A DNA stretch of 64,000 nt from Candidatus Dormiibacterota bacterium (GCA_035534415.1 DATLSB010000164.1:445-64444); one strand, 5' to 3'. Shown: positions 10,243-64,000, counted from the first letter of the stretch. The notes: generated from the letters alone by a model not told the origin. Numbers and translations: made by a program.

Positions 10243-10283
10243 AAAATGGACTGAAAACGGGCTACGTGCGGAGCCTCATCTCA

Positions 10284-42112: not shown

Positions 42113-42114
42113 GA

Positions 42115-44768: not shown

Positions 44769-44803
44769 CGACTCCCGGAATCCTTTTGGCGCTGAATGAA
44801 CCG

Positions 44804-46939: not shown

Positions 46940-48060
46940 ATCGATTCCTGGAATACGCGAGATAGCTGCAAACCATGCCTTTGCGATCGAGACAGAACCT
47001 TGGAGTAGAAGCTGTCGACGTGCCGGTACGATCGGGCGTAACCGTCTTTCAGCCAAATGCATTGGCAATAGTGACGCACGATCTGCGCCCCCAACTTTTC
47101 AAGCCTGGGAGCCGCCTCTTCTGAGGCGATTACCGGTATGTCCGACAATTCGAAATTCTCGTAAGCGGTCATTGCCGCCGTGAGCAGTGATGTTCCGGCC
47201 CCCTCGATTTCCGAAGCCGAAAGGTACGATGGCAAAAGCAAATCGCAGCGGTTCTCCAGATAGCTGAAGTTCAGTCCCAGCGGACCTCGGTATGCGATTG
47301 CCGCGCCGATGGGCTCGTCGGTACCTTTACGGTAGGCAAGCCAGACCTGCCGGGTGCGCCGCAGTCCCACACGGCGGTACAGTCCATCCAGAGCGTTGAA
47401 CGGAACATCTTCCGCCAGCTCTTCGGCGGTCAGATAGATGTGGCCCCTGGTTAGCTCCGCGATGGCCCATAAATCCCGCTTCCGCGCCGGATCGTAGGCA
47501 ATCACGCGAACCCCAGCATCTGTTGGCAGCGACAGTTTTCGCGAGAGAGCCAGATAGGCGTATTGCTGTGCGGACGACAGAGAATCGCCGATGCTTTGTG
47601 TCATGGAGCCGAAAACGCGCGCTGGAAAGCGGTTTTCAGGCCGGTACCAGTTTTGCGCCGATTCATCCGACCCCTTCAGGATGCTTTCAGCTTCCGCGGC
47701 GAGCATCACCGCGCGCGACGCGAATGGATTGTCTTCGGAAACCAGGTGCTGGTAGGTCCAACCGTGACGGGAACTGCGCCAGACAGCCAAGGCAGCGCGC
47801 CCCTTCTTGTCATCGCCCGCGGTGAGCACGTAGAGCAGAGACTCTTCCGCTCGCAACATTCGCCGCCAGTTTTCCTTCACAAGCTCCATGTGGGGCAGAA
47901 GCCGAGCAGCTTTTTCGGGGTAGAGAAATCCGGTGCTCTCGTACAGCCTAAAAAGTTCATCGATGTCAATCTCGTTTACCTGCACCCCATAGGAGGCGCG
48001 CAGTTCCGAAAGCCGCGGAAGCTTATTTATTGTTTCCTGGTCTTGCGCGTCCAAGGGCAT
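46936..48060 (-). CDS. conserved-looking hypothetical protein, first gene of the receptor/kinase array
   Basis: 374 aa. No signal peptide and no motif recognised. The C-terminal half is vaguely GNAT-like. Translationally coupled to the TonB-dependent receptor. Confidence 0.65.
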   Translation of the reverse strand: MPLDAQDQETINKLPRLSELRASYGVQVNEIDIDELFRLYESTGFLYPEKAARLLPHMELVKENWRRMLRAEESLLYVLTAGDDKKGRAALAVWRSSRHGWTYQHLVSEDNPFASRAVMLAAEAESILKGSDESAQNWYRPENRFPARVFGSMTQSIGDSLSSAQQYAYLALSRKLSLPTDAGVRVIAYDPARKRDLWAIAELTRGHIYLTAEELAEDVPFNALDGLYRRVGLRRTRQVWLAYRKGTDEPIGAAIAYRGPLGLNFSYLENRCDLLLPSYLSASEIEGAGTSLLTAAMTAYENFELSDIPVIASEEAAPRLEKLGAQIVRHYCQCIWLKDGYARSYRHVDSFYSKVLSRSQRHGLQLSRVFQESI

Positions 48061-49104: not shown

Positions 49105-50733
49105 TTAGGCTCTGCGTAATATTTTGTCCAATGCGAGCCGCGATTCCCCGTATGGATCGTCCACGGCTTCGCACTGGTCGTTGAAGATCATGACGGCTCG
49201 CTTTGTCTCATTAAACGCGGGCCAGTTAGCAAGTCCCTTGTGATTGGGATTGCCGCTGCGCGCGAAAGCTGTCCACGCTCCGCTCATCTTCGCCTCGAGA
49301 GCATATCGGTCCTCGCCGGAGCCGGTCATCGATTTCGCCAGGTCGACATTGTCGAATACAAACGGAATCTCCAACGTATGGAAGGTTCGAAGCTTTCCAT
49401 CGCGCACCGGCGATCTCCAGGTGAAATAATATTGATAGACCGGCGCGCCGCCCTGCGCGGCTTTCCGGTCGGCCTCAATCAGCACTCCCTGGCGAAACGT
49501 AGCATCGGAAGCGATGATCAGGTAGAGATCCGTGTTGCTCGCCTTCGGGCGCCCTTTCCGATACGCGGCAATTAGCGCGTCCACCTGTGTGTCATCCGCG
49601 CCGCGCAGGATTTGCTTCACGTGCATGTGCAGCGATGCGTCGTCGATCGGATCGAGGATCTGATTCGGGAAAAACGTCACTTCCGTCTCGACGGTGCCGA
49701 TCAGCAGCGGAACATTCGCGGAAATCGCGGGTGCCGTGGGATTAAATGGATCGCTCGGCAGCGTGGTGCCGTCCACCACGGGCGCAAGAGCGAGAGAACC
49801 CGATCCCGGCATTCCGTTTCCGGACAATTCCCCCATGACCTGCAAAAGCTGATTCATCGGGAGCTTCTGAAGCTGGTCAACCTGCCCGGATTGCAATCCC
49901 AGCTTTGCCATAAATGCTTCGGCCGATTTCGTGGCACGCTGGCGTGGAAGCCCTGTCACTGCCGCGCCGCTTTCCACGATCGCACGATGGAATAGTCCGT
50001 GGGCGGGAGGCATGGCCATCAATGCGCTTACTTTCCCTCCGCCTCCAGACTGTCCGAAGATGGTCACGTTGGCGGGGTCGCCGCCGAATTGCGCGATGTT
50101 GTCGCGAACCCACTCAAGCGCGGCGACCATGTCCAGCATTCCCACGTTGCTCGCCTGCGCGAAACTTTCACCGCCAAGTTCGGCTAGATAAGTGAACCCA
50201 AAAACTCCGAGGCGGTGGTTCAGAGTCACCACCACAACGTCGTGTTTGCGCGCCAAGTTCGTGCCGTCGTAGCAGACAAATGCGCCCGAGCCGGTGGTGT
50301 ATCCGCCGCCGTGCATCCACACCATCACGGGCCGCTGGCCGCCAAGCCCGGCGGTCCAAACATTCAGACACAGGCAGTCCTCGCTCATCGGGCCGCCTGG
50401 ATCCATTGGCTCGAACTCGGGAGGCACCATGCCGTGAAATTGATTGTCAAGCTGCAGCGCGCGTGGTCCGAACTCAACCGCATCGCGCACGCCCGTCCAC
50501 TGTGCAGCCTTTCGTGGAGGCATAAACCGGGCATTGCCGTCGGTGGGAGCGCCGTATCGGACGCCCTTGAAAATGTGTACGCCGCCGGTGGTCGCTCCTC
50601 GGATTTTTCCGGCGCTCGTTTCCACCACGGCGCCCGACGCGGCTTTCGGTTCCATCCCGAGCGCGTTTAATTTGCCACTCATCAAGGCTCCTGCCGCCAA
50701 AGTTCCGAGGCCCATGAACGATCGTCGGTCCAT
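49105..50733 (-). CDS. type-B carboxylesterase/lipase with Tat signal
   Basis: MDRRSFMGLGTLAAGALM (twin-Arg). VWMHGGGY oxyanion region. FGQSGGG nucleophile elbow. RBS GGAGGA precedes ATG 50733. Confidence 0.9.
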   Translation of the reverse strand: MDRRSFMGLGTLAAGALMSGKLNALGMEPKAASGAVVETSAGKIRGATTGGVHIFKGVRYGAPTDGNARFMPPRKAAQWTGVRDAVEFGPRALQLDNQFHGMVPPEFEPMDPGGPMSEDCLCLNVWTAGLGGQRPVMVWMHGGGYTTGSGAFVCYDGTNLARKHDVVVVTLNHRLGVFGFTYLAELGGESFAQASNVGMLDMVAALEWVRDNIAQFGGDPANVTIFGQSGGGGKVSALMAMPPAHGLFHRAIVESGAAVTGLPRQRATKSAEAFMAKLGLQSGQVDQLQKLPMNQLLQVMGELSGNGMPGSGSLALAPVVDGTTLPSDPFNPTAPAISANVPLLIGTVETEVTFFPNQILDPIDDASLHMHVKQILRGADDTQVDALIAAYRKGRPKASNTDLYLIIASDATFRQGVLIEADRKAAQGGAPVYQYYFTWRSPVRDGKLRTFHTLEIPFVFDNVDLAKSMTGSGEDRYALEAKMSGAWTAFARSGNPNHKGLANWPAFNETKRAVMIFNDQCEAVDDPYGESRLALDKILRRA

Positions 50734-50845
50734 ATTCGCTCCTCCCACCGGTTGCGAATTCCTCTCGTGCGAGTCCCCATGCGAATCCTTCCGCCCAAAT
50801 TCTCCACGATCTGGTTCTCAATTATCGAAGCGGTCGCGATTTACG

Positions 50846-52000
50846 CTACGCTGCCCGTCCCCACAGTTTCTTCGACGCGATCTGAGCGCCTTCGGCGAGC
50901 GCGCGGAATTTCATCCACGCAAACGCAGGGAACACCGGACCGAACCCGGCAAACGTGCCAAAGCCGCAGTCGCTTCCAGCCATCAACCGCTCGCGTCCCA
51001 CCACTTCCGCATAACGCAACAGGCGCTGCGCCACCACTTCCGGATGTTCCACGTAGTTGATGCCCGACGAAATTACTCCGGGAATCAAAATCTTTTCGTC
51101 AGGCAGCTTGATCGTCTTCCACGCTTCCCATTCGTGTTCGTGGCGCGGATTCGCGCCCTCCACCAGCAGCGCCATCGGCTTGGCTTTGATGACCAGCGGA
51201 AAAATTTTCATGCAGGACATATCGTGAACGTGCGAGCCGTCATAATTTCCCCAGCACACGTGCATGCGCACGCGATCCGCGGGGATATCGGCGAGCGCAT
51301 GATTGAGAGCCTCAACCTGCAGTTCCGCGTAGCCAAGGAACTCTTCGTCGCTCAGGTTTTTAAAACGCGAATGCCGCCCCATCGCCAGATCGGGGCAATC
51401 GAGCTGCAGCAGCAGGCCCGATTTCGCGATCATCTGGTACTCTTCGCGCATCGCGTTGGCCAGCGCCTCCAGATATGCCTCGTGCGAAGGGTAATATTCA
51501 TTCGGCTGGAACACGGCGATGGTGCCAGGCGACACCGCGTTCATGAAACCTTCCGTCACCTTGGCCTTGGCCATCGCTTCCTTCATGTGCGCGATATCTT
51601 TTTCAACGGGCGATAGATCCCGCACCTTGATCGGCCCTTTGCAAACGGGCCGCCGGTAGGTGGCCGAATGCCCGGTCTTCACCAGTCGGTCGCGAAACTC
51701 GGGAAAGTCTTCCAGATCCTGCGGCGTGGGGCGCGCGGAATCGCCTTCAAAACCCGTCAGACGATGCCTAATGTAGGTGGCGTAACTGATCTTGCTCATT
51801 TCGCCGTCGCTGACGACGTCAATGCCCGCCTCGCGCTGGCGGTTCACCACCTCGGCGACGGCCCTCCGCATCACTTCATCGAATTGTGCCGGGTCGTAAT
51901 CATCGTCGCGGTCCTGCGCGAATAGCAGATCCACAACTTCCTGCGGGCGCGGCAGGCTGCCTACGTGTGTGGTGAGGATTCGGTCTGTGCTGCGCTTCAT
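50846..52000 (-). CDS. cobalamin-independent methionine synthase (MetE C-terminal domain)-like protein
   Basis: THVGSLPRP..., ...DCPDLAM..., ...HVCWGNY... are typical of the COG0620 / Meth_synt_2 family. Confidence 0.8.
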   Translation of the reverse strand: MKRSTDRILTTHVGSLPRPQEVVDLLFAQDRDDDYDPAQFDEVMRRAVAEVVNRQREAGIDVVSDGEMSKISYATYIRHRLTGFEGDSARPTPQDLEDFPEFRDRLVKTGHSATYRRPVCKGPIKVRDLSPVEKDIAHMKEAMAKAKVTEGFMNAVSPGTIAVFQPNEYYPSHEAYLEALANAMREEYQMIAKSGLLLQLDCPDLAMGRHSRFKNLSDEEFLGYAELQVEALNHALADIPADRVRMHVCWGNYDGSHVHDMSCMKIFPLVIKAKPMALLVEGANPRHEHEWEAWKTIKLPDEKILIPGVISSGINYVEHPEVVAQRLLRYAEVVGRERLMAGSDCGFGTFAGFGPVFPAFAWMKFRALAEGAQIASKKLWGRAA

Positions 52001-52146
52001 CGGAGTCCCTTCGCGGCGGCAATCAACGCGGCTGAGAAAATACTCCGCAACCCCGCCGCTTGCAACCAGAAACGGTCAGCATCCAACGCCGAGCCGCCCT
52101 ACATGGCAATTTGGCTTCCGTCCGTCCTGAATGCGATCATATTTAC

Positions 52147-52683
52147 ATGCGCAAACGAAACATCATTATCCTTGGCAGCCTGATTGGCGCTGCCGCTGGC
52201 TGGGCCTTCGCCCATTCCAACTCGCCCCTCGAAACCGTGCCGAATGTTGACCTCAGCAGATATACCGGCCGATGGTATGAAATTGCCCGTTACCCCAACC
52301 GGTTCGAACGCAAATGCGACCGCGACGTCACCGCGGAGTACTCGATCAAAAACAATGGCGACATACGTGTGGCGAACTCCTGCGTCAAATCTTCGGGCGC
52401 GATCACGCAAGCTATTGGTACAGCCAAGGCCATCGACAAGGCGACGAACGCAAAGCTGAAGGTCGCGTTTTTTTGGCCGTTCTACGGCAAATATTGGATC
52501 ATCGATTTGGGACAAAACTACGATTACGCCGTGGTCGGAGAGCCTGCCCGCGAATATTTATGGATTCTCAGCCGGACTCCCCAAATGCCGGACCCACTGT
52601 ATCAACAAATCACCGCGCGCCTGGCCTCCAAGGGCTACGATGCCTCCAAACTGGTCAAAACGCGCCAGACCGCACTTCGCTGA
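52147..52683 (+). CDS. blc: bacterial lipocalin (Blc-like)
   Basis: YTGRWYEIARYPNRFERKCD...VAFFWPFYGKYWIIDL..DYAVVGEPAREYLWILSRTP is the classic Blc sequence. Confidence 0.9.
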   Translation: MRKRNIIILGSLIGAAAGWAFAHSNSPLETVPNVDLSRYTGRWYEIARYPNRFERKCDRDVTAEYSIKNNGDIRVANSCVKSSGAITQAIGTAKAIDKATNAKLKVAFFWPFYGKYWIIDLGQNYDYAVVGEPAREYLWILSRTPQMPDPLYQQITARLASKGYDASKLVKTRQTALR

Positions 52684-52777: not shown

Positions 52778-53899
52778 ATGGAAGCGCCCAATTTCGAATT
52801 TAACCTAAGCCGCCTGGAACGCGTGATCGAGGGACCCGGCAAAGTTGCCGCGCTCGGCGACGAACTCGACCGTCGCGGCCTGCAGCGCGCCATCATAGTC
52901 ACCGGCAAAACTCTCGGCGCGTCTGTCCTGCTCGAAAAACTTACGGGAGCGATTGGCTCTCGCTGCGCGGGCGTATTCCGCAGAGCGAAGCAGCATGTTC
53001 CGTGGAGTTCCGTTCACCAGCTGAAAGCGGAAATCGAACGGCTGAATGCGGACTCGCTGATCAGCTTCGGCGGCGGCAGCCCGATCGATACCTGCAAAGT
53101 GGCTACACACGCCTTGCTGCCGACGCGCGAACTCGTTCATATCGCCGTCCCAACCACTCTCTCCGCCGGCGAATACACGCACGCCGGCGGCGTCACCGAC
53201 GAAAAGACGCTGGTGAAATCAGGCGTGTCCGATCCGCGCCTGCAAGCCCGCACCATCCTCAACGACCCGGAGCTGACTCTTGAAACTCCCTCCTGGCTGT
53301 GGGTTTCCACTGGCATGCGTTCGCTCGATCATGCCATCGAGAGCATTTACGCGATTCGCCATCACCCGCTCAGCGATACGCTCGCCTCGAAAGCAATTGC
53401 GATACTTTTCGAGCACCTAAAACCATCCATCGAAGGTGACAGTAAGGAACAAATCCCGCATCGCGGCTACTGCCAAATGGCCGCGTGGTTTTCAATCTTC
53501 GGCGCGATGAACACGCGCTTCGGAATTTCGCATCTGCTCGGCCATCAGATCGGCCCGCGCTGGAATGTGCCGCACGGAGTCACGTCTTGCATTACGCTGC
53601 CGCACGCAATGCGATTCATGGCTGAAATCGCGCCGCAGCGGTTCGGTCCAATTGCGGAGGGCCTCGATCTGCCATTCGATCCAACGAAGTGCAGGGCGGC
53701 GGCTCTCGCGTGCGCCGACAAAGTGGAAAAGTTCATTGCCCAATTCGACGTGCCGCACACCCTAAAGCACGCCGGCGTTCCCGGCGGCGAGTTAGATCAA
53801 ATTGTCCCCACCGTGGCGCACGAACTTGAACGGTCGGGCACGATGGACCGCCCGGTGACAGAGAAAGAGATCGCTTCCCTGCTGAAAGCGGCGTATTGA
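52778..53899 (+). CDS. iron-containing alcohol dehydrogenase family (maleylacetate reductase-like)
   Basis: ISFGGGSPIDTCK glycine-rich motif. His-rich metal-site region ...HLLGHQIGPRWNVPHG. Confidence 0.8.
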   Translation: MEAPNFEFNLSRLERVIEGPGKVAALGDELDRRGLQRAIIVTGKTLGASVLLEKLTGAIGSRCAGVFRRAKQHVPWSSVHQLKAEIERLNADSLISFGGGSPIDTCKVATHALLPTRELVHIAVPTTLSAGEYTHAGGVTDEKTLVKSGVSDPRLQARTILNDPELTLETPSWLWVSTGMRSLDHAIESIYAIRHHPLSDTLASKAIAILFEHLKPSIEGDSKEQIPHRGYCQMAAWFSIFGAMNTRFGISHLLGHQIGPRWNVPHGVTSCITLPHAMRFMAEIAPQRFGPIAEGLDLPFDPTKCRAAALACADKVEKFIAQFDVPHTLKHAGVPGGELDQIVPTVAHELERSGTMDRPVTEKEIASLLKAAY

Positions 53900-53961: not shown

Positions 53962-55062
53962 CTACTTCTGACGTTTGTCTCCCCCGATAAATACCGCGCT
54001 GGTGCGCCGGGAAGCAGTCAACCCAGATGCGGGCTGTTCGGCTGCGCTAGTAGCCGCTTCCGCGGGTGCGGGCGCATTCACCGGAATCTTTCGCGCTCCT
54101 GGAGGCCGATTGCCTTCCGGCACCGTGATCGGCTCGAGCATGGCCTCCACTTCCTTGCGCCGCGATTCAAACCACGGCGGCAACAAGAGGCTTGTTCCCA
54201 ACTGATCGGCCGGCTCGTCCACCGCAAAGCCTTGCGGTACGTTAGCCGCGCACTCCACCAAAATTCCGCCCGGGCAGCGGCAATACACCGAGTGGAAATA
54301 CATGCGGTCCTTGATTTCAGACGCGTCCGTGTATCCCAGCTCGTCGTAAATTCCCTTCTGCTCGGCCAGCTTTTCGTCATTCTCCACTTCGAGAGCCAAG
54401 TGGTGCGCCGTGCCCGCGCCGAAAATCCAGCTGCCGGCCGGCCGATCGGGCTCGTGCAGTAGCGTCACCGTCTTCGCCGCTCCGCCTTCTCCGATTTCGA
54501 AGCGGTGGTATGGTCCCTCGACGCCGGTCTTGCGAAACCCAAGCGCGTCCACGAAGAACCGCTCCGTCTCCGGAATTTCACGAACCGAAAGAACCGGCCC
54601 ATGAAACCCTCGCGAGGTCACATCGCTGGTCACGTCCTTCGTCGTCCAACCCTTGCGCTTATCCGCATTATCCTCGAGCACTTCGAGCTGAATGCCGGAG
54701 GGATGGCTGAAGCGCACGAATTTCTGCCCGAACCGCTCCTGAATTCCGCCGTTTTTCACGCTGTGACGGTTCAGATGCTCGGCCCAAAACTTCAGCGAAC
54801 CTTTGGGAACCGTGTAGGCCGTCGATTGAATCTGCCCTGACCCCGGCTTGCCCTGCACGCGCTTGTACGGAAAAGTCGTATACACCGAGCCTGGCTCGGC
54901 GTCGGCGTTGGCATAGTACAGATGGTAGTGCGCGTAACGCCCGTCAAACAGAACCGTCTGCTTGATCAACCGCTGCCCGAACACTTGTGTCTGAAAGTCG
55001 ATATCCTCTTGCGCCCCACCCACGCACACAGTGATGTGATGAACTCCCTTTACCAGCGACAT
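53962..55062 (-). CDS. VOC-superfamily ring-cleaving dioxygenase-like protein (two glyoxalase/VOC domains)
   Basis: VKGVHHITVCVGGAQEDIDFQTQVFGQRLIKQTVLFDG..YHLYYAN. Start at MSLVKG with RBS GGAGGT 8 nt upstream. Confidence 0.8.
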   Translation of the reverse strand: MSLVKGVHHITVCVGGAQEDIDFQTQVFGQRLIKQTVLFDGRYAHYHLYYANADAEPGSVYTTFPYKRVQGKPGSGQIQSTAYTVPKGSLKFWAEHLNRHSVKNGGIQERFGQKFVRFSHPSGIQLEVLEDNADKRKGWTTKDVTSDVTSRGFHGPVLSVREIPETERFFVDALGFRKTGVEGPYHRFEIGEGGAAKTVTLLHEPDRPAGSWIFGAGTAHHLALEVENDEKLAEQKGIYDELGYTDASEIKDRMYFHSVYCRCPGGILVECAANVPQGFAVDEPADQLGTSLLLPPWFESRRKEVEAMLEPITVPEGNRPPGARKIPVNAPAPAEAATSAAEQPASGLTASRRTSAVFIGGDKRQK

Positions 55063-55430
55063 GTCTCTTACCTCCGCCGTGACCGCCACACCTTCGATTG
55101 TGGTTCATCGCGCCGAAAAGCGCCGCGGTTGCCCGCGCGTTTTCTCCGACCCCGCCTTCCGGAGCCTGCCCACCTGCGGCGGATTCTATACACGCCCGCG
55201 GCACACGCGCAAGTTTTAGTGGCCCGCCAATCCGCCGCCAATCGAACGCCGCCCGGAGTACGTCTGTTGACTGGAGGACCGACACTTGCATTCACGCTCG
55301 TACTAAGCGCTGGCCTGCCCTGCAAAACGAATCTCGAAATAGATGTTCGCGCTGGTCCATTTTATGGTACAAAGCGCGCGTCCGAAGGGTGGGACCGCCG
55401 CGCGCGTGTTTCTTTGGGGGCCTCCTAATT

Positions 55431-56432
55431 ATGGTCACCGGTCGTGAGGTTAGGTCACTAGGTTTCTTGCTGCTTGTACTGTTGTGCATGAGTACCGCCA
55501 CGCCGGCGACCGCGCGAATGGGTCCATCCGGCGAGGAATCGCAAAACCAGGTACACATCTGGCACGTGCAGGGCAATGTTTACATGCTAGTCGGAGCTGG
55601 CGCGAACATCACCGTCCAGGCGGGCGACGATGGCGTGCTGGTTGTGGACACCGGAACCGCTGCGATGAGCCAGCAAGTGCTCGCCGCCATCCGCTCCATT
55701 TCAGACAAACCGATCCGCTACGTCATCAACACCAGCGCGGATCCCGATCACACGGGCGGCAACTTGGTAATCGCGCAAGCAGGCAGCACGATCGCCGGAG
55801 GCAACGTCGTCGGCAATATCGGCGCCAGCGCCGGTGATCAGGCCACTGTGATCGCTTTCCAATCCGTGCTCGACCGCATGAGCGCGCCCACCGGCGAAAA
55901 GTCGCCCACGCCGCAAGGCGCATGGCCTACCGATACGTATACGACCGACGAAAAGAAGCTCTATTTCAATGGCGAGCCGATCCGCATCATTCACATAGCA
56001 AACGCGCATTCCGATGGCGATAGCATGGTTTTCTTTCAGAGGTCAGACGTTATCTCGACAGGCGACATCTTCTCTACCGTTTCGTATCCCGTCGTGGAGC
56101 TGGACAAAGGCGGCAACATCAACGGCCTGATTGACGGGCTGAATCGCATCATCTACCTCACCACTCCGATCTCCATGCAGGAGGGCGGTACGATGGTCAT
56201 TCCCGGTCATGGGCGCGAGTGCGACCAGTCGGACGTGAAGTGGTATCAGGAAATGGCCACCATCCTTCGCAATCGAGTTCAAACCTATATTAAGAGAGGC
56301 ATGACGCTCGAACAGGTGAAGCAGGCCAGTGTGACATTGGGTTACGATCCGCGCTATGGCGCGACGGAAGGCCCGTGGACCACGAAGATGTTTGTGGACG
56401 CGATGTACAAGAGCCTTACCGAAAAACACTGA
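55431..56432 (+). CDS. secreted MBL-fold protein with a non-canonical metal motif
   Basis: Signal peptide after MVTGREVRSLGFLLLVLLCMSTATPATA. ...VLVVDTG...YVINTSADPDHTGGN (S-x-D-x-D-H in place of H-x-H-x-D-H) ...NAHSDGD...IPGHG. Confidence 0.8.
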   Translation: MVTGREVRSLGFLLLVLLCMSTATPATARMGPSGEESQNQVHIWHVQGNVYMLVGAGANITVQAGDDGVLVVDTGTAAMSQQVLAAIRSISDKPIRYVINTSADPDHTGGNLVIAQAGSTIAGGNVVGNIGASAGDQATVIAFQSVLDRMSAPTGEKSPTPQGAWPTDTYTTDEKKLYFNGEPIRIIHIANAHSDGDSMVFFQRSDVISTGDIFSTVSYPVVELDKGGNINGLIDGLNRIIYLTTPISMQEGGTMVIPGHGRECDQSDVKWYQEMATILRNRVQTYIKRGMTLEQVKQASVTLGYDPRYGATEGPWTTKMFVDAMYKSLTEKH

Positions 56433-56497
56433 CGCGACTTTTGGGCGCCGCTGTCTTATTGTTATTAAGGGAATGCCTTTTTAGCAGGGGGAGTGCC

Positions 56498-56884
56498 ATG
56501 AAACAGAAAATCGCGGTTCTTTTTCTTGCCGTGTCCATTCTAGCCACTGGCGCGGCTTACGCACATCATTCTTTCGCGGCCACGTATTTCGTCGATCGCG
56601 AGATCACCGTCAAGGGCACCTTAACTCAGTTTCTCTATCGCAACCCGCACTCGTTCATCAAAATCCAGGGGCCCGATAGCGAGGGCCATATGCAAACGTG
56701 GTCAATCGAGTGGGGTGGCGGCGCTCAACTCACCCACGATCACGTTTCGCGCGATACGCTCCGGCCCGGAGACGTGGTGATCGTCACTGGCAATCCGGGA
56801 CGCGAAGCCAGCGAGCATCGCATCCGCTTGCACAAGATCGTACGGCCGTCCGACGGCTGGAAGTGGGAAGGCGTGATCATGTAG
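56498..56884 (+). CDS. small secreted protein whose mature N-terminus is His-His (DUF6152-like, from memory)
   Basis: MKQKIAVLFLAVSILATGAAYA / HHSFAATYFVDREITVKGTLTQFLYRNPHSFIKIQ...WSIEWGG. Confidence 0.75.
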   Translation: MKQKIAVLFLAVSILATGAAYAHHSFAATYFVDREITVKGTLTQFLYRNPHSFIKIQGPDSEGHMQTWSIEWGGGAQLTHDHVSRDTLRPGDVVIVTGNPGREASEHRIRLHKIVRPSDGWKWEGVIM

Positions 56885-56993
56885 CCGTTCTTTCGCCGGC
56901 CGATCGAGCTGGCGCAAGTTCGGCGGATCCGTAGTTGTCTGGGCCGAGTCGCGCTTGTCCGCGACAAGCGGCCTGACCGATGGAGGGGGAAGC

Positions 56994-57815
56994 ATGTACC
57001 GCCAAGTGTGCTTGAGGCGTATCCTGCCGCTCTGTCTGAGCCTGGCGGCGCTTTCGATCGCGATTCCCAGCCGCGCCAGCGCTCAGTTCGGCGGGTACCC
57101 TCCGCCAGCGCGCCCTGCGAATCCCCGCCAAATCGCGCCGCAGGATTTCACCGGCTATTGGGTCTCTCTCGTCACGGAAGACTGGCGCTGGCGGATGCTA
57201 ACTCCCGATAAAGGGGACTACTCAAGCGTTCCGCTGAACTCCGTTGGCAAAGCGCTGGCTGATACTTGGGATCCAGCCAAGGACACGGCCGCGGGCGAGC
57301 AGTGCAAGTCGTATGGCGCTCCTGCACTGATGCGGATTCCGACGCGCCTGCATATCGCGTGGGCGGATGACCATACGCTTCGCATCGATACAGATGCGGG
57401 CACCCAAACAAGACTCCTTCATTTCGATAGCGCCGCGCCTGCGGATTTCACTCCGTCGTGGCAGGGCTATTCGGTGGCCAGTTGGGAAGGCCTAAAGCAA
57501 GGCGGCATGTTCCGCCTGCCCACGGTCGCAGGCGGAGGCGCCCAGCAGACGCGCGCGCCAGAGGGATATCTGAAAGTCGTCACCACGCATCTGCGGCCCG
57601 GTTATCTGCGCAAAAATGGCGTGCCCTACAGCGCGAATACCGTTCTCGAGGAATATTACGACGGCTTCACCGAGCCCAACGGCGATAGTTATCTGGTGGT
57701 GACCACCATCGTCACCGATCCCCAATACCTGTCCCAGCCCTTCATCACCAGCTCGCACTTCAAAAAGCAGACGGATGCTTCCGGATGGAATCCCACCCCC
57801 TGCGAAGCGCGATGA
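56994..57815 (+). CDS. secreted hypothetical protein
   Basis: MYRQVCLRRILPLCLSLAALSIAIPSRASAQ signal peptide. No motif recognised. Confidence 0.7.
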   Translation: MYRQVCLRRILPLCLSLAALSIAIPSRASAQFGGYPPPARPANPRQIAPQDFTGYWVSLVTEDWRWRMLTPDKGDYSSVPLNSVGKALADTWDPAKDTAAGEQCKSYGAPALMRIPTRLHIAWADDHTLRIDTDAGTQTRLLHFDSAAPADFTPSWQGYSVASWEGLKQGGMFRLPTVAGGGAQQTRAPEGYLKVVTTHLRPGYLRKNGVPYSANTVLEEYYDGFTEPNGDSYLVVTTIVTDPQYLSQPFITSSHFKKQTDASGWNPTPCEAR

Positions 57816-57869
57816 CCCACAGCCGGATCGACGGGATCATTCCAATTTCGTCGGCCCCAAGGATGGGTG

Positions 57870-58373
57870 ATGTATCTCACTAGATTCCTGGTGTGGCTGG
57901 ACGCCACTCATTTCAGCCACTGGATGCGCGATTCGATCTATGCCGAGCCTATTGTGGAGAGCATTCACGTCCTCACGCTCACGTTCTTTCTGGGATTTGC
58001 CGTTCTCCTCGATCTGCGGTTGCTCGGCGTGTGCATGAAAAAGCGGCGCGTATCCGAGGTGCTCGGCCAATTCAATCCGTGCCTCTTCTGCGGATTCGCG
58101 GTGATGATCATTTCCGGAGTTTTGCTATTCTCCGGCGATCCGGTGGACTTTTACAGCACGAGTTTCTTCAAGATCAAAATGATTCTGCTGGTCTTCGCTG
58201 GACTGAACGTTTTGATCTTCAACGCCACCATTGGCCGCAAAGTGGCGGAATGGGATGCGGCGCTGAAAACTCCGAAGGCTGCGAAAGTCGCGGCCATCGT
58301 TTCTCTCGTGTTGTGGGCTGCCATCGTGGCCGCAGGCCGCGCTATCGCGTATGTGCTTCCGCCGCCATCATAA
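57870..58373 (+). CDS. 4-TM membrane protein, paralog 1 of 4 (DUF6644-like, from memory)
   Basis: ...AEPIVESIHVLTLTFFLGFAVLLDLRLLGV...FFKIKMILLVFAGLNVLIF...AGRAIAYV. Confidence 0.75.
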   Translation: MYLTRFLVWLDATHFSHWMRDSIYAEPIVESIHVLTLTFFLGFAVLLDLRLLGVCMKKRRVSEVLGQFNPCLFCGFAVMIISGVLLFSGDPVDFYSTSFFKIKMILLVFAGLNVLIFNATIGRKVAEWDAALKTPKAAKVAAIVSLVLWAAIVAAGRAIAYVLPPPS

Positions 58374-58399
58374 GGAGTCTCATTAGGAGATGAGCTACA

Positions 58400-58888
58400 A
58401 TGCATCCTGAAAAATGGCTCCTGGTGTTTTGCCAATGGGCGCTCAATTCGCATTTCGGCCACGGCGTGCGCGACTCCGTCTGGCTTTTCCCAGCCGTCGA
58501 AATCTGCCACCTGCTGGGACTCGCGGTGCTGGGCGGCACCGTTTTAATTTTGAATTTGCGCCTCATGAATCTGCGCTTCCCGAATGAACCGGTGGCCGAG
58601 TTGGCGCGCGACGTGCAGCCTCTCATGATCGGCAGCCTCATCGTCATGCTGATCTCCGGCTTTTTTCTGTTCTCTTCCGAGGCCGTGAAAATGTACGACA
58701 ATGTCGCGTTCCACTACAAAATGGTCTTTCTGCTACTCGCCATCGCCTTCACGTTCACCATTCACCGCAAAGTAGTGATGTCTGCCGAAGGCCGCGTGCC
58801 GCTATTCTGGCGCGTTGCCGTCGCTCTGCTTTCGCTGGCGCTGTGGGCTGGCGTGGGGCTCGCCGGCCGCGCGATCGGATACGTCTGA
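58400..58888 (+). CDS. 4-TM membrane protein, paralog 2 of 4
   Basis: ...LFPAVEICHLLGLAVLGGTVLILNLRLMNL...FHYKMVFLLLAIAFTF...AGRAIGYV. Confidence 0.75.
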   Translation: MHPEKWLLVFCQWALNSHFGHGVRDSVWLFPAVEICHLLGLAVLGGTVLILNLRLMNLRFPNEPVAELARDVQPLMIGSLIVMLISGFFLFSSEAVKMYDNVAFHYKMVFLLLAIAFTFTIHRKVVMSAEGRVPLFWRVAVALLSLALWAGVGLAGRAIGYV

Positions 58889-58943
58889 TGCGACAAATTG
58901 CCAGTCGCAAAAATAAATTTGAGATTTGTGAGCGTTGCCAGCC

Positions 58944-59426
58944 ATGATCGCTGAAATCGCCCAAGCCGCCAACGACTCGCTTTCGCTGAATCCCATCAAC
59001 CGCTGGGTATGGGTTTTCCCGGTGGTCGAATCGATCCATATCTGCGGGTTCGCGCTGCTGGTCGGCACTATCGCAGTGCTCGACTTGCGCTTGTCCGACC
59101 TATGCCTCACGCGCCAATCGATCAACCGGCTTGCTGAAGTGCTCGCGCCGTGGATTTACCTGGGCATCGCCATTCAATTCGTTACCGGACCGTATCTATT
59201 CTCGGCTTCTCCGCACGACTACGTTCACAATCCTTCGTTTCGCATGAAGATGATGTTCCTGGCTGCGGCGCTGATTTTTCACTTCACCGTGGTTCGCGGC
59301 ACGGCGGGAAAAACCGAACCGCTCGCGCCCGTCTGGCGGCGGCTGGTCGCAGTCGTATCGATGGGGCTGTGGATCGGCGTGATTCTCGGTGGGCTCGGCA
59401 TCGGATTCTGGGCGGTCAACGACTGA
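58944..59426 (+). CDS. 4-TM membrane protein, paralog 3 of 4
   Basis: ...VFPVVESIHICGFALLVGTIAVLDLRLSDL...FRMKMMFLAAALIFHF. Alternative TTG start at 58935. Confidence 0.75.
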   Translation: MIAEIAQAANDSLSLNPINRWVWVFPVVESIHICGFALLVGTIAVLDLRLSDLCLTRQSINRLAEVLAPWIYLGIAIQFVTGPYLFSASPHDYVHNPSFRMKMMFLAAALIFHFTVVRGTAGKTEPLAPVWRRLVAVVSMGLWIGVILGGLGIGFWAVND

Positions 59427-59439
59427 GAGGTATTTCGCG

Positions 59440-59928
59440 ATGTCGCTCCATTCAGCAGCTCAATGGCTGACCGATACGAACTTGAGCACCGCCCTGCGCG
59501 AAGATCCCTATCCCTATCCGGTACTCGGCACGATTCACGTGCTCAGCATCGCGCTTTTCGGCGGCATGGTGGCAATGGGCAATTTACGGGTGCTCGGCTA
59601 CGCCATGCGCGACGTGCCGGTGTCGCAAGTGATCGACCAATTTCGCCCGTGGAAATGGACTGGCTTCGCGATTCTGGCCGCCAGTGGGGTCGTGCTCACC
59701 CTGTCCGAGCCAATCGACTGCTACAAGAGCGTGTTTTTCTGGATTTCGCTGGTTCTGCTTGCGCTCGTCGGATTGAACGCGTGGCTCTTTCACTCCGGCA
59801 TCTATCGCCGCGTCTCCGAGTGGGATACGTCTGCTATCGCGCCGCCATCGGCCCGGCGATGGGCTTGGCTTTCGCTGGTGCTGTGGATCGCCCTCGTCTT
59901 CGCCGGACGCCTAATCGCCTTCGGCTGA
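59440..59928 (+). CDS. 4-TM membrane protein, paralog 4 of 4
   Basis: ...PYPVLGTIHVLSIALFGGMVAMGNLRVLGY...AGRLIAFG. Confidence 0.75.
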   Translation: MSLHSAAQWLTDTNLSTALREDPYPYPVLGTIHVLSIALFGGMVAMGNLRVLGYAMRDVPVSQVIDQFRPWKWTGFAILAASGVVLTLSEPIDCYKSVFFWISLVLLALVGLNAWLFHSGIYRRVSEWDTSAIAPPSARRWAWLSLVLWIALVFAGRLIAFG

Positions 59929-60192: not shown

Positions 60193-61764
60193 CTAAATCG
60201 CGCCGTTTTTCATCTGCTCTTCAACGTATTCCGACTGCCGCAGCGTGAGCGCCACAATCGTCAGCGTCGGATTCTCTCCGCCGCTCGAAACAAACTGGCT
60301 GCCGTCGGAAACAAAAAGATTCTTCACGTCGTGGCTCTGGCCAAACTTATTCACCACGCCATCGCGCGCATTGTCAGCCATCCGAGCCGTGCCCATGTTG
60401 TGCGTCGAAGGATATGGCGGCACTCTGACGATCTTTTTTGCGCCGATCGAATCGTAGAGCGCGGTTCCCTGCTTGTACCCATGTTCCCGCATGGCCGTGT
60501 CGTTCGGATGATCGTCGAAATGCACGTTGGGAATGGGCATGCCGAACCGGTCTTTCTTATCCGCATCCACGGTGATGCGATTCGTTTCCTGGGGCAAATC
60601 CTCGCCAATTACCCAAAGCCCTGCCACGTTCGCATAATGATCGAGCACCCAGGCGCGCTCGCGTCCCCATCCGCCGGGAATCACATTTTGTGCGAAGCTC
60701 GGCAGCCCCTGCGGCAGCAGTTCCATCTGATAGCCGCCCACGAATCCGCGCTTCGCATTGAGCCGCGCTTCGTCCATCACGATTCCCGATTGCGCCGTGC
60801 CCCGATACATATGCACCGGTTTTTCGAACACGCCAAACGCCGTGCCGGTAGTGTGCTTCATATAGTTGCGTCCCACTTGCCCGGACGAATTTGCCAGCCC
60901 ATGCGGAAACATACTCGAATGCGAGTTCAGCAGCAGTCGCGGCGTTTCAATCGCATTGCATGCCACGGCAACCACGCGCGCTTTCTGCCGATGCTGCACG
61001 CCTTCGCTGTCTGTATAAATCACGCCGGTAACTTTTCCGGACGCGTCATGCTCGATCCGCAGCACCTGCGATTCCGCGCGGACCTCCGCTTTCCCAGTAG
61101 CTTCCGCGGCGGGAATTTCCACGTACATCGTCGACCACTTCGCCTGGAACGTGCAGCCCTGAATGCAGAATCCGGTCTGCTGGCACGACGCGCGCCCATC
61201 GCGCGGCACTGAATTTATGGCCATCGTGGGCACGCGAAATTCCGTGTAGCCGATCTTTTTCGCGCCTGCGAACAGCACCTTGCCGTGATTGCTGACCGGC
61301 AGCAGCGGAATTCCATGCCTTCCTGAAACGCCCATTTTGTCTTCCGCGCGGTCGTAGTACGGCTCCATCTCTTTCAGGTCGACCGGCCAGTCCATCAGAT
61401 TCGCGCCCGCAATATTCCCGTAATGCGTGCGCGGTTTGAATTCGTGTTCCTGAAGACGCAGCGCCACCGCTCCCCAATGGACGGTCGTGCCACCAACCAG
61501 CTTGCAAGTCCACACCGGCAATGTTGGAAAATTCTTCGCCACCGACCAGGTGCCAGACGTAGTGCGCGGGTCTTCCCAAGTGAACAAGCCAAACATCGCG
61601 ACCTCGTCGTTCTTGATGTCGCTCATCTGCAGCCGCTTCCCCGCTTCCAGCACGACCACAGGAATTCCTTTGTGCGCCAGCTCGTTCGCCAGCGTTGCGC
61701 CGCCCGCCCCGGAGCCAATGATCACCACTACTGATGAATCGTTCAGATCAAAGTTTGCGGGCAT
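60193..61764 (-). CDS. GMC-family FAD oxidoreductase (gluconate 2-dehydrogenase flavoprotein-like)
   Basis: VVIIGSGAGGATLANELAHKGIPVVVLEAG Rossmann motif. C-terminal GMC motifs ...HNMGTARM..., ...NLFVSDGSQF.... RBS GGAGG. Confidence 0.9.
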   Translation of the reverse strand: MPANFDLNDSSVVVIIGSGAGGATLANELAHKGIPVVVLEAGKRLQMSDIKNDEVAMFGLFTWEDPRTTSGTWSVAKNFPTLPVWTCKLVGGTTVHWGAVALRLQEHEFKPRTHYGNIAGANLMDWPVDLKEMEPYYDRAEDKMGVSGRHGIPLLPVSNHGKVLFAGAKKIGYTEFRVPTMAINSVPRDGRASCQQTGFCIQGCTFQAKWSTMYVEIPAAEATGKAEVRAESQVLRIEHDASGKVTGVIYTDSEGVQHRQKARVVAVACNAIETPRLLLNSHSSMFPHGLANSSGQVGRNYMKHTTGTAFGVFEKPVHMYRGTAQSGIVMDEARLNAKRGFVGGYQMELLPQGLPSFAQNVIPGGWGRERAWVLDHYANVAGLWVIGEDLPQETNRITVDADKKDRFGMPIPNVHFDDHPNDTAMREHGYKQGTALYDSIGAKKIVRVPPYPSTHNMGTARMADNARDGVVNKFGQSHDVKNLFVSDGSQFVSSGGENPTLTIVALTLRQSEYVEEQMKNGAI

Positions 61765-61879
61765 CCAGTGCCTCCGCCGTGGCGGCGCAACTTGCCCGCC
61801 GCCTATCTTCCGCTCGCGCCTTTGGCTTCATTCGCGCCTTCGCGTTCATTCCGCTTTCGCGCACCGTTGCGTCAGCCGC

Positions 61880-62422
61880 TTACAGCCAATCAAGATCGTT
61901 GAATCCGCGATGTAAATATCCGCTCTGCGCCGACGAGGGCCCCTGATATCCGAAAATCGGCCACAGCGCCCGCTGGTTGTAAAACGAAACCACCGTGGTG
62001 CCGTAAACCTTGGCGAAAAAAGGCCCCTGCTCGATCTGCTTGATGGCCGCCACGCGAACGTTTTCGTCAGCCACATCCGCGTACGTTTTCCCGGGCGCCG
62101 CTTTCGCTAGCCGGTTCAGCTGCGCGATTCCGCTAACCAGCAGTTTCTTCGCCGATAAATTCTTGGCTGCCTCATCGTTCAGCGGCACGATCGCCTGCGC
62201 GTAATACTTCTCGGCAATTTGCGAATGCGGGAAGAGATCGCGCACGAACTGGAGCAACACCCGCGCTTGCGCGGGCGTCAAAGTATCTAGCTCGATGGCA
62301 AAAGTGCCATGCGGGTCCACCAACATGGTCGCGCCGCTGACTGCAACCGTGACAATAGCTGCCGCACCGCTGGCCAGAAAGCCGCGGCGTGAAACCTTCA
62401 ACTTGCGGCTCGCGTCTTTCAT
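61880..62422 (-). CDS. gluconate 2-dehydrogenase subunit-3-like small Tat-signal protein
   Basis: MKDASRKLKVSRRGFLASGAAAIV (twin-Arg). RBS AAGGAG before ATG 62422. Directly upstream of the GMC flavoprotein. Confidence 0.75.
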   Translation of the reverse strand: MKDASRKLKVSRRGFLASGAAAIVTVAVSGATMLVDPHGTFAIELDTLTPAQARVLLQFVRDLFPHSQIAEKYYAQAIVPLNDEAAKNLSAKKLLVSGIAQLNRLAKAAPGKTYADVADENVRVAAIKQIEQGPFFAKVYGTTVVSFYNQRALWPIFGYQGPSSAQSGYLHRGFNDLDWL

Positions 62423-62554
62423 TTCGTCTCCTTGCAATACATTATCAGCCTCGGCCGCCAGCCGGTTGCTGCGCATTCCGGGCTGCGTTTGCTACCATAG
62501 AGGGCCGATAGCAGGAGAACATACCACTACAACCGACAAGGGGAACACACCGAT

Positions 62555-63061
62555 ATGAATTCGGGCTCAAATTATCGCTCGCCGGATAAACACAACCGGC
62601 TTTCGCAAGGAATCGCTTTCGCAGCTATTTTGTTGGCAGCCATTTTCCTGGTTCATTCGCAGATTTCCTTGCATGCCGTGAACGCCGCGCCAACCACCAC
62701 GCCGCCGGCGACCAAGACTACCGCGGACGGCGTCTACTCGCCGGATCAAGCGGCCAAAGGCAAAGATCTCTACTCGCAAAATTGCTCCGCCTGTCATTTG
62801 GACGACATGAGCGGCAGCGGCGAAGCGCCGCCGCTCGCCGGCGAGGGTTTTACGGACAGCTGGGACGGCCACACCGTCAACGAACTCGACCAGACCGTCC
62901 TGAACACCATGCCGCTCGACAATCCCGGCAGCCTCGATCCCAGCGATGCGCTCGCCATCGTCACGTACATCTTTCAAAAGAACAACATGCCTCCGGGCGC
63001 TGCACCGCTCAAGAACGACTCCGCCACGCTGAAGGACATCACCATCAGCACCAAAAAGTAA
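62555..63061 (+). CDS. membrane-anchored mono-heme c-type cytochrome
   Basis: N-terminal TM segment. A single CSACH heme motif and a distal Met (NTMPLDNPGSL). Confidence 0.8.
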   Translation: MNSGSNYRSPDKHNRLSQGIAFAAILLAAIFLVHSQISLHAVNAAPTTTPPATKTTADGVYSPDQAAKGKDLYSQNCSACHLDDMSGSGEAPPLAGEGFTDSWDGHTVNELDQTVLNTMPLDNPGSLDPSDALAIVTYIFQKNNMPPGAAPLKNDSATLKDITISTKK

Positions 63062-63487: not shown

Positions 63488-64000
63488 TCACCGAACGGAA
63501 AACGCCAGCAGCACATTTCCGGGCTTTCCTCCGCCCACGTTCGCGTAGCCCGAGCCGACGAAAACCATTCCGTTCACTACCACCGCACCCGGACCGCCCA
63601 TCGAGCCACCCTTCGCCGCAACTCCGTTCACAGTTTTGAAATTTTGCTCGGTGTTGAATTGCCAGAGCACTTTCCCATCTGCCGTCGCAAGCGCGCGGAT
63701 CAAGCCGTCCCATCCTTCAGTGAACACAGCGCCGGGAATCAGCATCGCCGCCGCCGATTGGCCGAAGCGCAATCCCGCCTTGGTGCGATTCTCTCCATTC
63801 GGTGTTTTGGCACCCAAATCGCTCAGCGGCTGCAGCCTCACGTCCCACAAGACCTTGCCACTCGATGGATCGAGCGCCACGAATCTCCCATCTTCCAGCG
63901 GCACGTAAAACGCGTCCGCATCGGCTGCGCCTCCGAAAGCGATCTCGCCATTATTCGGAGCAACGGTGTTGATCAAAGGCAGCTTCCAAAGCAGCGCGCC
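63488..64000 (-). CDS. PQQ-dependent (quinoprotein) dehydrogenase, C-terminal part; 5' end lies outside the window
   Basis: Beta-propeller repeats ...ALDPSSGKVLWDVRL..., ...ALATADGKVLWQFN..., ...VVVNGMVFVGSGY.... The frame is open to the window edge. Confidence 0.8.
   Translation of the reverse strand, partial: GALLWKLPLINTVAPNNGEIAFGGAADADAFYVPLEDGRFVALDPSSGKVLWDVRLQPLSDLGAKTPNGENRTKAGLRFGQSAAAMLIPGAVFTEGWDGLIRALATADGKVLWQFNTEQNFKTVNGVAAKGGSMGGPGAVVVNGMVFVGSGYANVGGGKPGNVLLAFSVR

Follow-up and report, generated by a model that had tools for sequence, protein, structure and literature searches.

After signal cleavage, an N-terminal histidine serves as a copper ligand in CopC, YcnI, lytic polysaccharide monooxygenases (LPMOs), and particulate methane monooxygenase (pMMO), and the YcnI site comprises His27, Glu50, and Trp137 (PMC8424229). 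YcnJ depends for its function on H24, the His-brace residue of its CopC part, and on one conserved histidine of its CopD part, H295 (PMC13344008). We compared these proteins, and several other described systems, with seven genes at positions 55431-59928 of a 64,000-nt stretch of DNA from a Candidatus Dormiibacterota bacterium (GCA_035534415.1 DATLSB010000164.1:445-64444; the whole stretch is hereafter called the window). All seven lie on the plus strand and encode, in order, a secreted metallo-β-lactamase (MBL)-fold protein (g1), a small secreted protein of the DUF6152 family (g2), a further secreted protein whose family we call G3 (g3), and four membrane proteins of the DUF6644 family (g4 to g7). 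DUF6152 and DUF6644 are already catalogued as domains of unknown function (DUFs), and G3 is absent from the catalogues (Pfam and NCBIfam). We found no mention of DUF6152 or DUF6644 in the literature, nor, in the searchable literature, any account of how the three families are linked, of the paired arrangement, of an MBL gene that is only optional, or of the tie to hydroquinone genes, all of which are described below.

The nearest analogue in possible working is the CopC/CopD pair (YobA/YebZ in Escherichia coli, fused as YcnJ in Bacillus subtilis), together with YcnI. CopD has eight transmembrane (TM) helices, which is also the total of two DUF6644 genes, and some DUF6644 members give weak CopD matches. 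The likeness extends to (i) a small secreted β-protein with histidine as its first mature residue (E. coli YobA matures to H-A-H), encoded beside a multi-TM membrane protein, and to (ii) a single conserved histidine in that membrane protein, which is functionally required in YcnJ (PMC13344008); the invariant DUF6644 histidine, at the periplasmic end of TM1, is a putative counterpart of YcnJ H295 or the YebZ His. However, CopC is a β-sandwich, whereas DUF6152 is modelled as an oligonucleotide/oligosaccharide-binding (OB) fold; DUF6644 stays under the CopD cut-off, gives no YebZ alignment, and has its membrane part split into 4-TM paralogues; and the present cluster has no copper-homeostasis context and adds G3 barrels and an MBL protein, neither of which belongs to CopCD systems.

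CusF, a periplasmic OB-fold Cu(I)/Ag(I) chaperone, resembles DUF6152 as a small periplasmic OB-fold with conserved His and Trp on the β2-β3 face. The CusF site consists of His36, Trp44, Met47, and Met49, against which we set H51, W68, and E71 of DUF6152; unlike CusF, DUF6152 has no Met ligands, carries an N-terminal His-His, and has neither a CusF Pfam match nor a CusCBA partner. The cytochrome b561/YceI arrangement (E. coli yceJ-yceI) pairs the gene for a calycin-like barrel of the periplasm with that for a small membrane redox protein of four TM helices, and one related locus, L098, has a true cytochrome b561 beside G3-like and DUF6152 genes. Some LPMO redox partners carry YceI-like and cytochrome domains, and the function of yceJ-yceI is itself unsettled. 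The present proteins differ in that G3 has no sequence or significant fold match to YceI and DUF6644 is not a cytochrome b561.

Two further comparisons concern g1 and the surroundings of the cluster. Chlorothalonil hydrolytic dehalogenase (Chd) is a secreted MBL-fold protein that aligns over most of g1 and whose motif 2 also starts with Ser (S-Y-H-G-D-H), and the best NCBIfam model of g1, SoxH_rel_PQQ_2, points to the SoxH-like periplasmic MBLs; the scores are nevertheless marginal (27.7 bits to Chd), and the window MBL lacks both motif-2 histidines of metal site 1. The PcpA/PcpE-type (chloro)hydroquinone pathway and the Bacillus MhqR regulon are resembled by a PcpA/MhqO-like dioxygenase, a maleylacetate-reductase-like protein, and a carboxylesterase beside small 4-TM proteins. 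The MhqR regulon includes the ring-cleaving dioxygenases MhqA/E/O, the carboxylesterase MhqD, and the DoxX-type membrane protein MhqP, whereas our seven genes have no counterpart in either pathway and DUF6644 is not DoxX.

A co-inherited envelope cluster of two interleaved modules

The seven genes, taken from the listing of open reading frames (ORFs) and inspection of start codons, and the site of an eighth gene that is missing from the window, are as follows.

55431-56432, plus strand: g1, secreted MBL-fold protein, 333 aa (Pfam Lactamase_B), with a degenerate metal motif 2
56498-56884, plus strand: g2, DUF6152 (PF19649), 128 aa, secreted, modelled as an OB-fold, predicted mature N-terminus His-His
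56994-57815, plus strand: g3 (G3), 273 aa, secreted, predicted calycin-like barrel with a helical insert, family without a database model
57867-58373, plus strand: g4, DUF6644 4-TM protein, 168 aa (PF20349, 38.9 bits), first of the g4-g5 pair
58400-58888, plus strand: g5, DUF6644 paralogue, 162 aa (PF20349, 66.6 bits), second of the g4-g5 pair
58935-59426, plus strand: g6, DUF6644 paralogue, 163 aa (PF20349, 45.4 bits), first of the optional g6-g7 pair
59440-59928, plus strand: g7, DUF6644 paralogue, 162 aa (PF20349, 45.0 bits), second of the g6-g7 pair
55090-55430, no strand: site of the missing G3p gene (about 298 aa), which loci L007 and L101 carry between the dioxygenase and MBL genes

Successive intergenic gaps are 65, 109, 51, 26, 46, and 13 nt, which reproduces the layout given in a preliminary description of this DNA (seven plus-strand genes with gaps of 13-109 nt). 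At their N-termini, the products of g1, g2, and g3 have a signal-like hydrophobic stretch with an A-x-A-type site after it, and the products of the cluster are predicted to reside in the periplasm and inner membrane. Pairwise ratios of nonsynonymous to synonymous substitution rates (dN/dS), calculated against the relatives L100, L007, and L101, lie at 0.03-0.135 for all seven genes (g1, 0.08-0.135, the highest of the seven; g3, 0.07-0.10; g5, 0.03), which identifies all of them as selected coding genes. Scans of the cluster region for promoters and terminators, Rfam families, and repeats gave nothing over background. The family names DUF6152 and DUF6644, which the preliminary description had suggested, are both correct by Pfam, with scores over the gathering thresholds, and its statement that no gene has an assigned function holds, as none of the seven falls in a characterised family in Pfam, NCBIfam, or PDB profile searches.

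Over 100 loci carry the cluster, and many soil bacteria conserve it. When homologues of g3 were searched for, at least 8,000 were returned, and an exhaustive g3 search gave 2,937 clusters at 50% identity; 80 loci were taken from species-representative genomes, 80 from metagenomes, and about 20 from elsewhere, and their ORFs were labelled by BLAST and our own hidden Markov models. The order MBL-DUF6152-G3-DUF6644 is shared by dozens of GTDB and metagenome loci. Co-occurrence in other genomes was one of the points on which the preliminary description had staked its proposal, and the genes do co-occur across genomes and phyla. We conclude that they form a genuine, selected, and co-inherited envelope cluster. 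A scan of metagenomes with the DUF6152 alignment gave close acidobacterial relatives only and did not widen the sampling of genomic context.

Neighbours were counted at 56 loci anchored on G3 and extending 5 kb or more to either side; of these, MBL is present in 53, G3p in 50, DUF6152 in 35, and DUF6644 in 21. The commonest unit is the triad G3p-MBL-G3 (module 1), in which G3p is a 298-aa paralogue of g3 (28% identity; hhalign probability, 99.5%) whose stop overlaps the MBL start in L001. DUF6152 sits between MBL and G3 in 35/56 loci. DUF6644 is present in two copies in 14 loci and in four copies in 6, in the constant order g4-type, g5-type, and then, optionally, g6-type and g7-type, the g6-g7 pair being restricted to four-copy loci; on the basis of this constant order, the four membrane genes constitute two conserved pairs (g4-g5 and g6-g7). 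The cluster therefore consists of two interleaved modules, namely G3p-MBL-G3 and DUF6152 with its DUF6644 pairs, so that the seven-gene block of the preliminary description is real and conserved, but comprises two separable modules instead of one unit.

An apparently clean in-frame G3p-G3 fusion in our representative library (P0244, 501 aa) fits two barrels acting together. Four other long "fusions" (P0362, P0389, P0368, and P0345) contain Arg-rich frameshift-like stretches, are likely assembly errors, and were dropped as evidence. A plasmid search with G3 gave no match. In L001 (11017-11859, minus strand) and in many four-copy loci, a second, non-secreted-looking MBL-fold gene is convergent after the last DUF6644 gene and is followed by genes for an NAD-binding dehydrogenase, a CMD-family protein, and an aldehyde dehydrogenase; the window has a GMC block at this place.

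The second module also occurs without the first. DUF6152 and DUF6644 stand alone on Paracoccus versutus pTAV3 (with 4-nt spacing) and in Azospirillum, with one DUF6644 gene each, and replicons of Novosphingobium, Sphingobium, and Sinorhizobium combine G3-like, DUF6152, and DUF6644 genes without MBL, with one or two distant G3-like genes (for a Novosphingobium humi protein, the G3 profile gives an hhalign probability of 97.7% and E = 2e-12). Three loci (L140, L149, and L172) carry divergent module duplicates of the form 6644< 6644< 6152< 6152> 6644> 6644>, and no MBL or G3 gene was detected in the fetched loci. At other proteobacterial metagenome loci, DUF6152 typically stands beside a tandem G3-like pair, often adjoining TonB-dependent receptor genes. 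In L096, L181/L182, and L184, a BKACE (beta-keto acid cleavage enzyme) gene directly follows DUF6152, and PSCyt/DUF1501 genes, typical of Planctomycetes-like "cytochrome + sulfatase-like" pairs, precede it.

G3, DUF6152, and DUF6644 are thus genomically linked across Acidobacteriota, Gammaproteobacteria, and Alphaproteobacteria and can therefore be studied as one system and not as orphans. Culturable carriers of the minimal module are P. versutus pTAV3 (WP_036754405.1 and WP_036754408.1), Azospirillum argentinense, Novosphingobium humi, Novosphingobium sp. PP1Y, and Sinorhizobium mexicanum. With its cross-phylum linkage, its culturable hosts, and a predicted His-His terminus on a modelled OB-fold, the cluster is a directly testable lead.

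The window copy is itself atypical, since G3p is kept in 50/56 related loci. In L007 and L101, the closest relatives with the same flanks, the gene is in place, whereas only 342 nt occupy its site in the window, with no remnant detectable by tblastn. When aligned to L007, positions 7321-8519 of that locus are replaced by window positions 55193-55548, and the first ∼39 MBL codons, including the signal peptide, are not alignable. G3p is also absent from L100 (84-88% nucleotide identity to the window), and the loss was therefore inherited in the lineage and is not an assembly artefact.

Predicted properties of the four protein families

The g2 product matches PF19649 (DUF6152) with 77.7 bits (cut-off, 27), and its signal-peptidase site is predicted from the A-x-A rule at A-Y-A↓H-H-S-F. 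We aligned 59 DUF6152 sequences from Acidobacteriota, Alphaproteobacteria, and Gammaproteobacteria. Conservation among them is complete or at least 97% at A22, H23, H24, P50, H51, and G91 and at least 93% at N49, W68, and E71. Because the residue at position -1 is always Ala, mature DUF6152 is predicted always to begin with His-His; the predicted A↓H-H occurs in 59/59 sequences and places histidine first in the mature protein, as in CopC/YcnI-type proteins. The small secreted protein with a mature His-His N-terminus, as the preliminary description had put it, is thereby borne out at the level of prediction and is conserved across the family.

An AlphaFold2 (AF2) model of DUF6152 shows an OB-fold (β1-3/helix/β4-5) with a predicted local distance difference test (pLDDT) score of 84.6. 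In this model, H51 opens β2, and W68 and E71 lie on β3, the usual ligand face of OB-folds. Foldseek searches with the model returned OB domains at ∼5e-5, but these were generic (lysyl-tRNA synthetase, LysRS; single-stranded-DNA-binding protein, SSB) and gave no functional hint, and the DUF6152, DUF6644, and G3 profiles found nothing below E = 0.1 when searched against the PDB by sequence. By its conserved residues, DUF6152 is a candidate for an N-terminal-histidine (His-brace-type) metal site, which on an OB-fold would be new. Known proteins with N-terminal-His sites include copper chaperones and powerful oxidative enzymes.

The four membrane proteins all pass the PF20349 cut-off of 27 bits (38.9, 66.6, 45.4, and 45.0 bits for g4, g5, g6, and g7), have four hydrophobic spans each, and share 27-42% identity (38% for g5-g4; 42% for g7-g4), in agreement with their earlier description as four tandem paralogous 4-TM proteins. 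Across DUF6644, a His at the start of TM1 (H34 in g4) is 99% conserved, G84, W150, and G157 are invariant, and the family has conserved R/K after TM1 and before TM3 as well as a C-terminal G-R. The positive-inside rule predicts an N-out/C-out topology with loops 1-2 and 3-4 in the cytoplasm, so that the conserved His and the other conserved polar residues would face the periplasm. Weak matches of DUF6644 to DUF2214 (6/16 members, best 2e-5; g6 is among those with a weak match) and to CopD (5/16, best 1e-4) are all sub-threshold, and a literature search on DUF2214 found only catalogue-type papers. Direct homology of DUF6644 to CopD is not claimed, since an alignment with YebZ is absent.

For g3, which carries a signal peptide, neither Pfam nor NCBIfam gave a match, so that its earlier characterisation as a 273-aa protein with no recognisable motif is true of the databases; the family is, however, large, and its conservation is very strong (93% or more at over 60 positions). 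The superfamily-wide positions are Cys104, Cys270, G-x-S-x-x-x-W-x-G, R114, T197, N208-G209, and D242-P243, of which Cys104 and Cys270 presumably form a disulfide. The confident AF2 model (pLDDT, 87.7) predicts an 8-9-stranded calycin-like barrel after a segment of short helices, with avidin and streptavidin as the best PDB fold matches, at an insignificant E value of only 0.07-0.3 and a TM-score of ∼0.5 to the target. No haem or flavin motif was found in DUF6152 or G3.

The g1 product matches Lactamase_B (PF00753) with 54.3 bits (cut-off, 22.7; E = 2e-14). Instead of the H-x-H-x-D-H motif 2, it carries S-A-D-P-D-H, in which both motif-2 histidines of site 1 are gone, while the remaining ligand positions (D106, H107, H193, D212, and H260) are conserved. 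The preliminary description was therefore right to call it a secreted MBL-fold protein with a degenerate metal motif (TSADPDH instead of THxHxDH). Its best NCBIfam match, the SoxH-related "quinoprotein relay" hydrolase model, reaches 88.5 bits against a cut-off of 280. By PDB sequence search, g1 matches 8d2z (an unannotated MBL-superfamily protein for which no relevant paper was found in the literature) at 8e-13 and chlorothalonil dehalogenase (6uxu) at 1e-5, followed by alkylsulfatase and B2 lactamases with similarly weak scores. None of these matches gives g1 a specific activity.

L100 reads TSADPDQ where the window, L007, and L101 read TSADPDH, whereas the canonical T-H-x-H-x-D-H is found in 54/73 MBL family members and in 55/58 MBLs of a DUF6152-anchored metagenome set. 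A separate triad clade without DUF6152 (L004 and L009-L014) carries T-[T/N]-D-D-P-D-H. We considered whether the degenerate motif tracks DUF6152/DUF6644 and rejected this, as the variant is lineage-specific and similar changes also occur in the clade without DUF6152; the sequences indicate a lineage-specific change and no family trait. Since the other ligand positions are kept and dN/dS is 0.08-0.135, we read the window MBL site as altered rather than dead.

A possible metal or electron relay and its rivals

The account that we tentatively put first, as possible but short of probable, is a CopC/CopD-like metal or electron relay serving the periplasmic processing of an aromatic compound. It is favoured by analogy because DUF6152 and DUF6644 repeat the logic of an N-terminal His combined with a membrane His, with different folds. 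Signal-peptide cleavage would expose His1-His2 of DUF6152, whose amino terminus and imidazoles, together with the N-P-H His, the Glu, and the Trp on the OB face, could hold a metal ion, most likely Cu(II) by the same analogy. The g4-g5 and g6-g7 pairs would form 8-TM units, each subunit giving one invariant His at the periplasmic membrane surface, and DUF6152 would exchange metal, or electrons via the metal, with these units. The metal centre may then serve the MBL protein and the G3 barrel, the latter binding a hydrophobic or aromatic ligand, and together these would process an imported aromatic compound in the periplasm; a hydroquinone-type product would be degraded in the cytoplasm by a PcpA-like dioxygenase, a maleylacetate-reductase-like enzyme, and a carboxylesterase. 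The genes for these last enzymes lie next to the cluster.

53962-55089, minus strand: PcpA-like hydroquinone ring-cleaving dioxygenase (VOC superfamily), divergent from the cluster, assigned by PDB matches
52778-53899, plus strand: Fe-ADH family protein, maleylacetate-reductase-like, assigned by PDB matches
50846-52000, minus strand: MetE-like (Meth_synt_2) protein (Pfam PF01717, 2.5e-12)
49105-50748, minus strand: type-B carboxylesterase (Pfam COesterase, 1e-106)

The dioxygenase matches 2,6-dichloro-p-hydroquinone 1,2-dioxygenase (4huz) at 3.4e-72 over residues 13-319, its substrate being assigned by similarity, and MhqO (3oaj) at 1.3e-58; the Fe-ADH protein matches PDB 9ph0 ("MAR1") at 3e-44 and the maleylacetate reductases 3hl0 and 3w5s at 1e-27 and 3e-26. 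Among the 56 loci, the dioxygenase is a neighbour in 17 and the Fe-ADH gene in 12. Loci of Acidobacteriota and Steroidobacteraceae have the MetE-like gene together with the cluster, the carboxylesterase gene directly adjoins it in many metagenome loci, and HpaB-like phenol hydroxylase genes are present in 8 loci. The dioxygenase gene is found in at least three arrangements, namely divergent (window), co-directional 110-176 nt upstream of G3p (L015 and L016), and downstream (Steroidobacteraceae), and in L068 both the dioxygenase gene and the MetE-like gene stand between G3p and MBL in the same orientation. The triad of L004 adjoins a PnpCD-type hydroquinone dioxygenase, an aldehyde dehydrogenase, an AraC regulator, and an MFS transporter. 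The presence of two unrelated hydroquinone dioxygenase types beside the same triad argues for a functional connection and against inherited synteny. Since alphaproteobacterial loci are without these genes, the catabolic link belongs to the MBL-containing form. This link suggests that hydroquinones from lignin, humus, or organochlorines are turned over by abundant, poorly cultured soil bacteria.

A range of observations weighs against such a relay. On the side of DUF6152, no CopC, DUF1775, or CusF Pfam match was found, the OB-fold is not that of CopC or the cupredoxins, and the His-His segment has a pLDDT below 50, so that the geometry of the site is modelled at low confidence, because the signal peptide was included in the model. 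On the side of DUF6644, the best CopD (PF05425) score in the window is 22.1 bits (g7) against a cut-off of 32.1, and the DUF6644 profile does not align with E. coli YebZ (hhalign probability, 0.1%). Within 7-8 kb of DUF6152, a DUF6644 gene is missing from about half of the proteobacterial loci. No His, Met, or free Cys is conserved in G3, which is therefore not an obvious metal client, and the window MBL, without its two His ligands, may not be a hydrolase. The surroundings likewise fit poorly: no CopA, multicopper oxidase, Cus, Sco, CueR, or CsoR gene was seen in any neighbourhood examined, the nearby regulators are of the AraC, TetR, MarR, and LysR types, hydroquinone genes accompany the cluster in only ∼30% of loci, and none was found near proteobacterial DUF6152 loci at E < 1e-6. 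The periplasm-to-membrane metal or redox system put forward in the preliminary description fits the DUF6152 signature (His-His, N-P-H, Trp, and Glu), the DUF6644 His, the weak CopD/DUF2214 similarity, and the cytochrome b561 of L098, but membership in CopD fails.

That cytochrome b561 gene bears on the main rival, a somewhat more doubtful account in which electrons rather than metal are passed on. In this account, DUF6644 pairs would bind b-type haem between their invariant histidines, or link to the quinone pool, and electrons would move to or from the DUF6152 metal centre, which with G3 would reduce or oxygenate a periplasmic aromatic compound or quinone; the logic resembles that of a cytochrome domain feeding a His-brace copper enzyme. 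In L098, three G3-like and three DUF6152 genes (6149-10922) precede the cytochrome b561 gene (PF01292, 1.7e-23), which directly follows DUF6152 at the usual place of DUF6644, although this replacement is known from a single locus. Other DUF6152 loci adjoin genes for PSCyt-type cytochrome-domain proteins or cytochrome c, and the neighbours of the cluster are quinone- and hydroquinone-related. The one conserved polar ligand per 4-TM subunit, the conserved pairing of the genes, and the clustering of conserved Lys, Arg, Trp, and Phe at the periplasmic face of DUF6644 would suit a redox protein, but no haem-binding family matches DUF6644, and the absence of haem and flavin motifs from DUF6152 and G3 speaks against it as well. 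The single DUF6644 gene of Paracoccus and Azospirillum is compatible with a homodimer and adds no support. As delivery and redox cycling could apply to one and the same copper centre, the metal and the electron versions of the relay overlap, and the cluster probably serves one or the other purpose, holding a metal or passing electrons at the cell envelope. Two TonB-dependent receptor genes and one for an AraC regulator border the row of genes in L098.

A bolder extension, which we consider a long shot, is that OB-fold DUF6152 founds a new histidine-brace class, forming with the paired G3 barrels and a CopD-like or cytochrome b partner a hitherto unrecognised periplasmic copper-dependent oxidoreductase or oxygenase system, widespread among soil Acidobacteriota and Proteobacteria, that would convert imported aromatics for hydroquinone ring cleavage. 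If the chemistry is indeed oxidative catalysis and not metal trafficking, the system would be categorically new.

An unlikely account dispenses with the metal altogether: TonB receptors would import a hydrophobic or aromatic compound, G3 would carry it through the periplasm, the MBL protein would hydrolyse a conjugate, DUF6644 oligomers would provide entry at the inner membrane, and DUF6152 would act as an adaptor. The predicted calycin-like barrel of G3, the catabolic enzymes and MFS or SSF transporters nearby, the small-molecule type of the regulators, and TonB-dependent receptor genes adjoining in L090, L094, L097, and L098 are all consistent with such a shuttle, and a TonB-receptor-like family is present in 26/82 acidobacterial loci. 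However, no TonB receptor gene adjoins the cluster in the window, where the nearest Plug-domain gene (44804-47068) is part of a different unit; permeases are not typically 4-TM proteins in which just one polar residue is conserved; and the His-His signature with N-P-H, Glu, and Trp is hard to account for without a metal.

We hold it to be quite unlikely that the MBL/G3 module is a decaying remnant in the window lineage, with only DUF6152 and DUF6644 still working. Such decay would explain the absence of G3p from the window and L100, the TSADPDH (window, L007, and L101) and TSADPDQ (L100) motifs in place of the THxHxDH of nearly all other DUF6152-linked MBLs, and the dN/dS of the MBL gene, the highest of the seven at 0.135. 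Nevertheless, values of 0.08-0.135 for MBL and 0.07-0.10 for G3 signify strong purifying selection, the ORFs are intact, and [S/T/N]-x-D-x-D-H variants are conserved in the separate triad clade (L004 and L009-L014), which suggests an altered site. Finally, that the seven genes are merely adjacent and unrelated, or that g1 is an ordinary β-lactamase, is highly improbable, given that order and interleaving are conserved across phyla, co-occurrence contradicts mere adjacency, and the sub-threshold matches of g1 to class B β-lactamase models (NCBIfam), which alone favour the latter, reach 16-38 bits against cut-offs of 100-750.

Other genes around the cluster in the window

Downstream of g7, window positions 60193-63061 encode a GMC flavoprotein dehydrogenase, a 198-aa small subunit, and a cytochrome c, like three-subunit membrane dehydrogenases, and a pyrroloquinoline quinone (PQQ)-dehydrogenase-like ORF follows this block at 63488-63976. 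The GMC oxidoreductase, cytochrome c, and PQQ genes were rejected as parts of the cluster, as they adjoin it only in the closest relatives. Upstream, a Blc-like bacterial lipocalin gene (52060-52683, plus strand; Lipocalin_2, 1e-48) has the MetE-like gene on one side and the Fe-ADH gene on the other; the syntenic relatives L007 and L100 lack it here, so that it looks like a recent insertion into the block of hydroquinone genes.

At 20 kb from the cluster, a DyP-type peroxidase (Dyp_perox_N and Dyp_perox_C) is encoded at 35454-36551 on the minus strand; DyP enzymes are often discussed for lignin and aromatic oxidation. A four-gene signalling block at 39645-47068 (minus strand), apparently a separate unit, encodes a response-regulator/PAS/GGDEF/EAL protein, a CHASE8 hybrid histidine kinase, a YfiR/HmsC-like protein, and the 754-aa TonB-receptor Plug-domain protein at 44804-47068.

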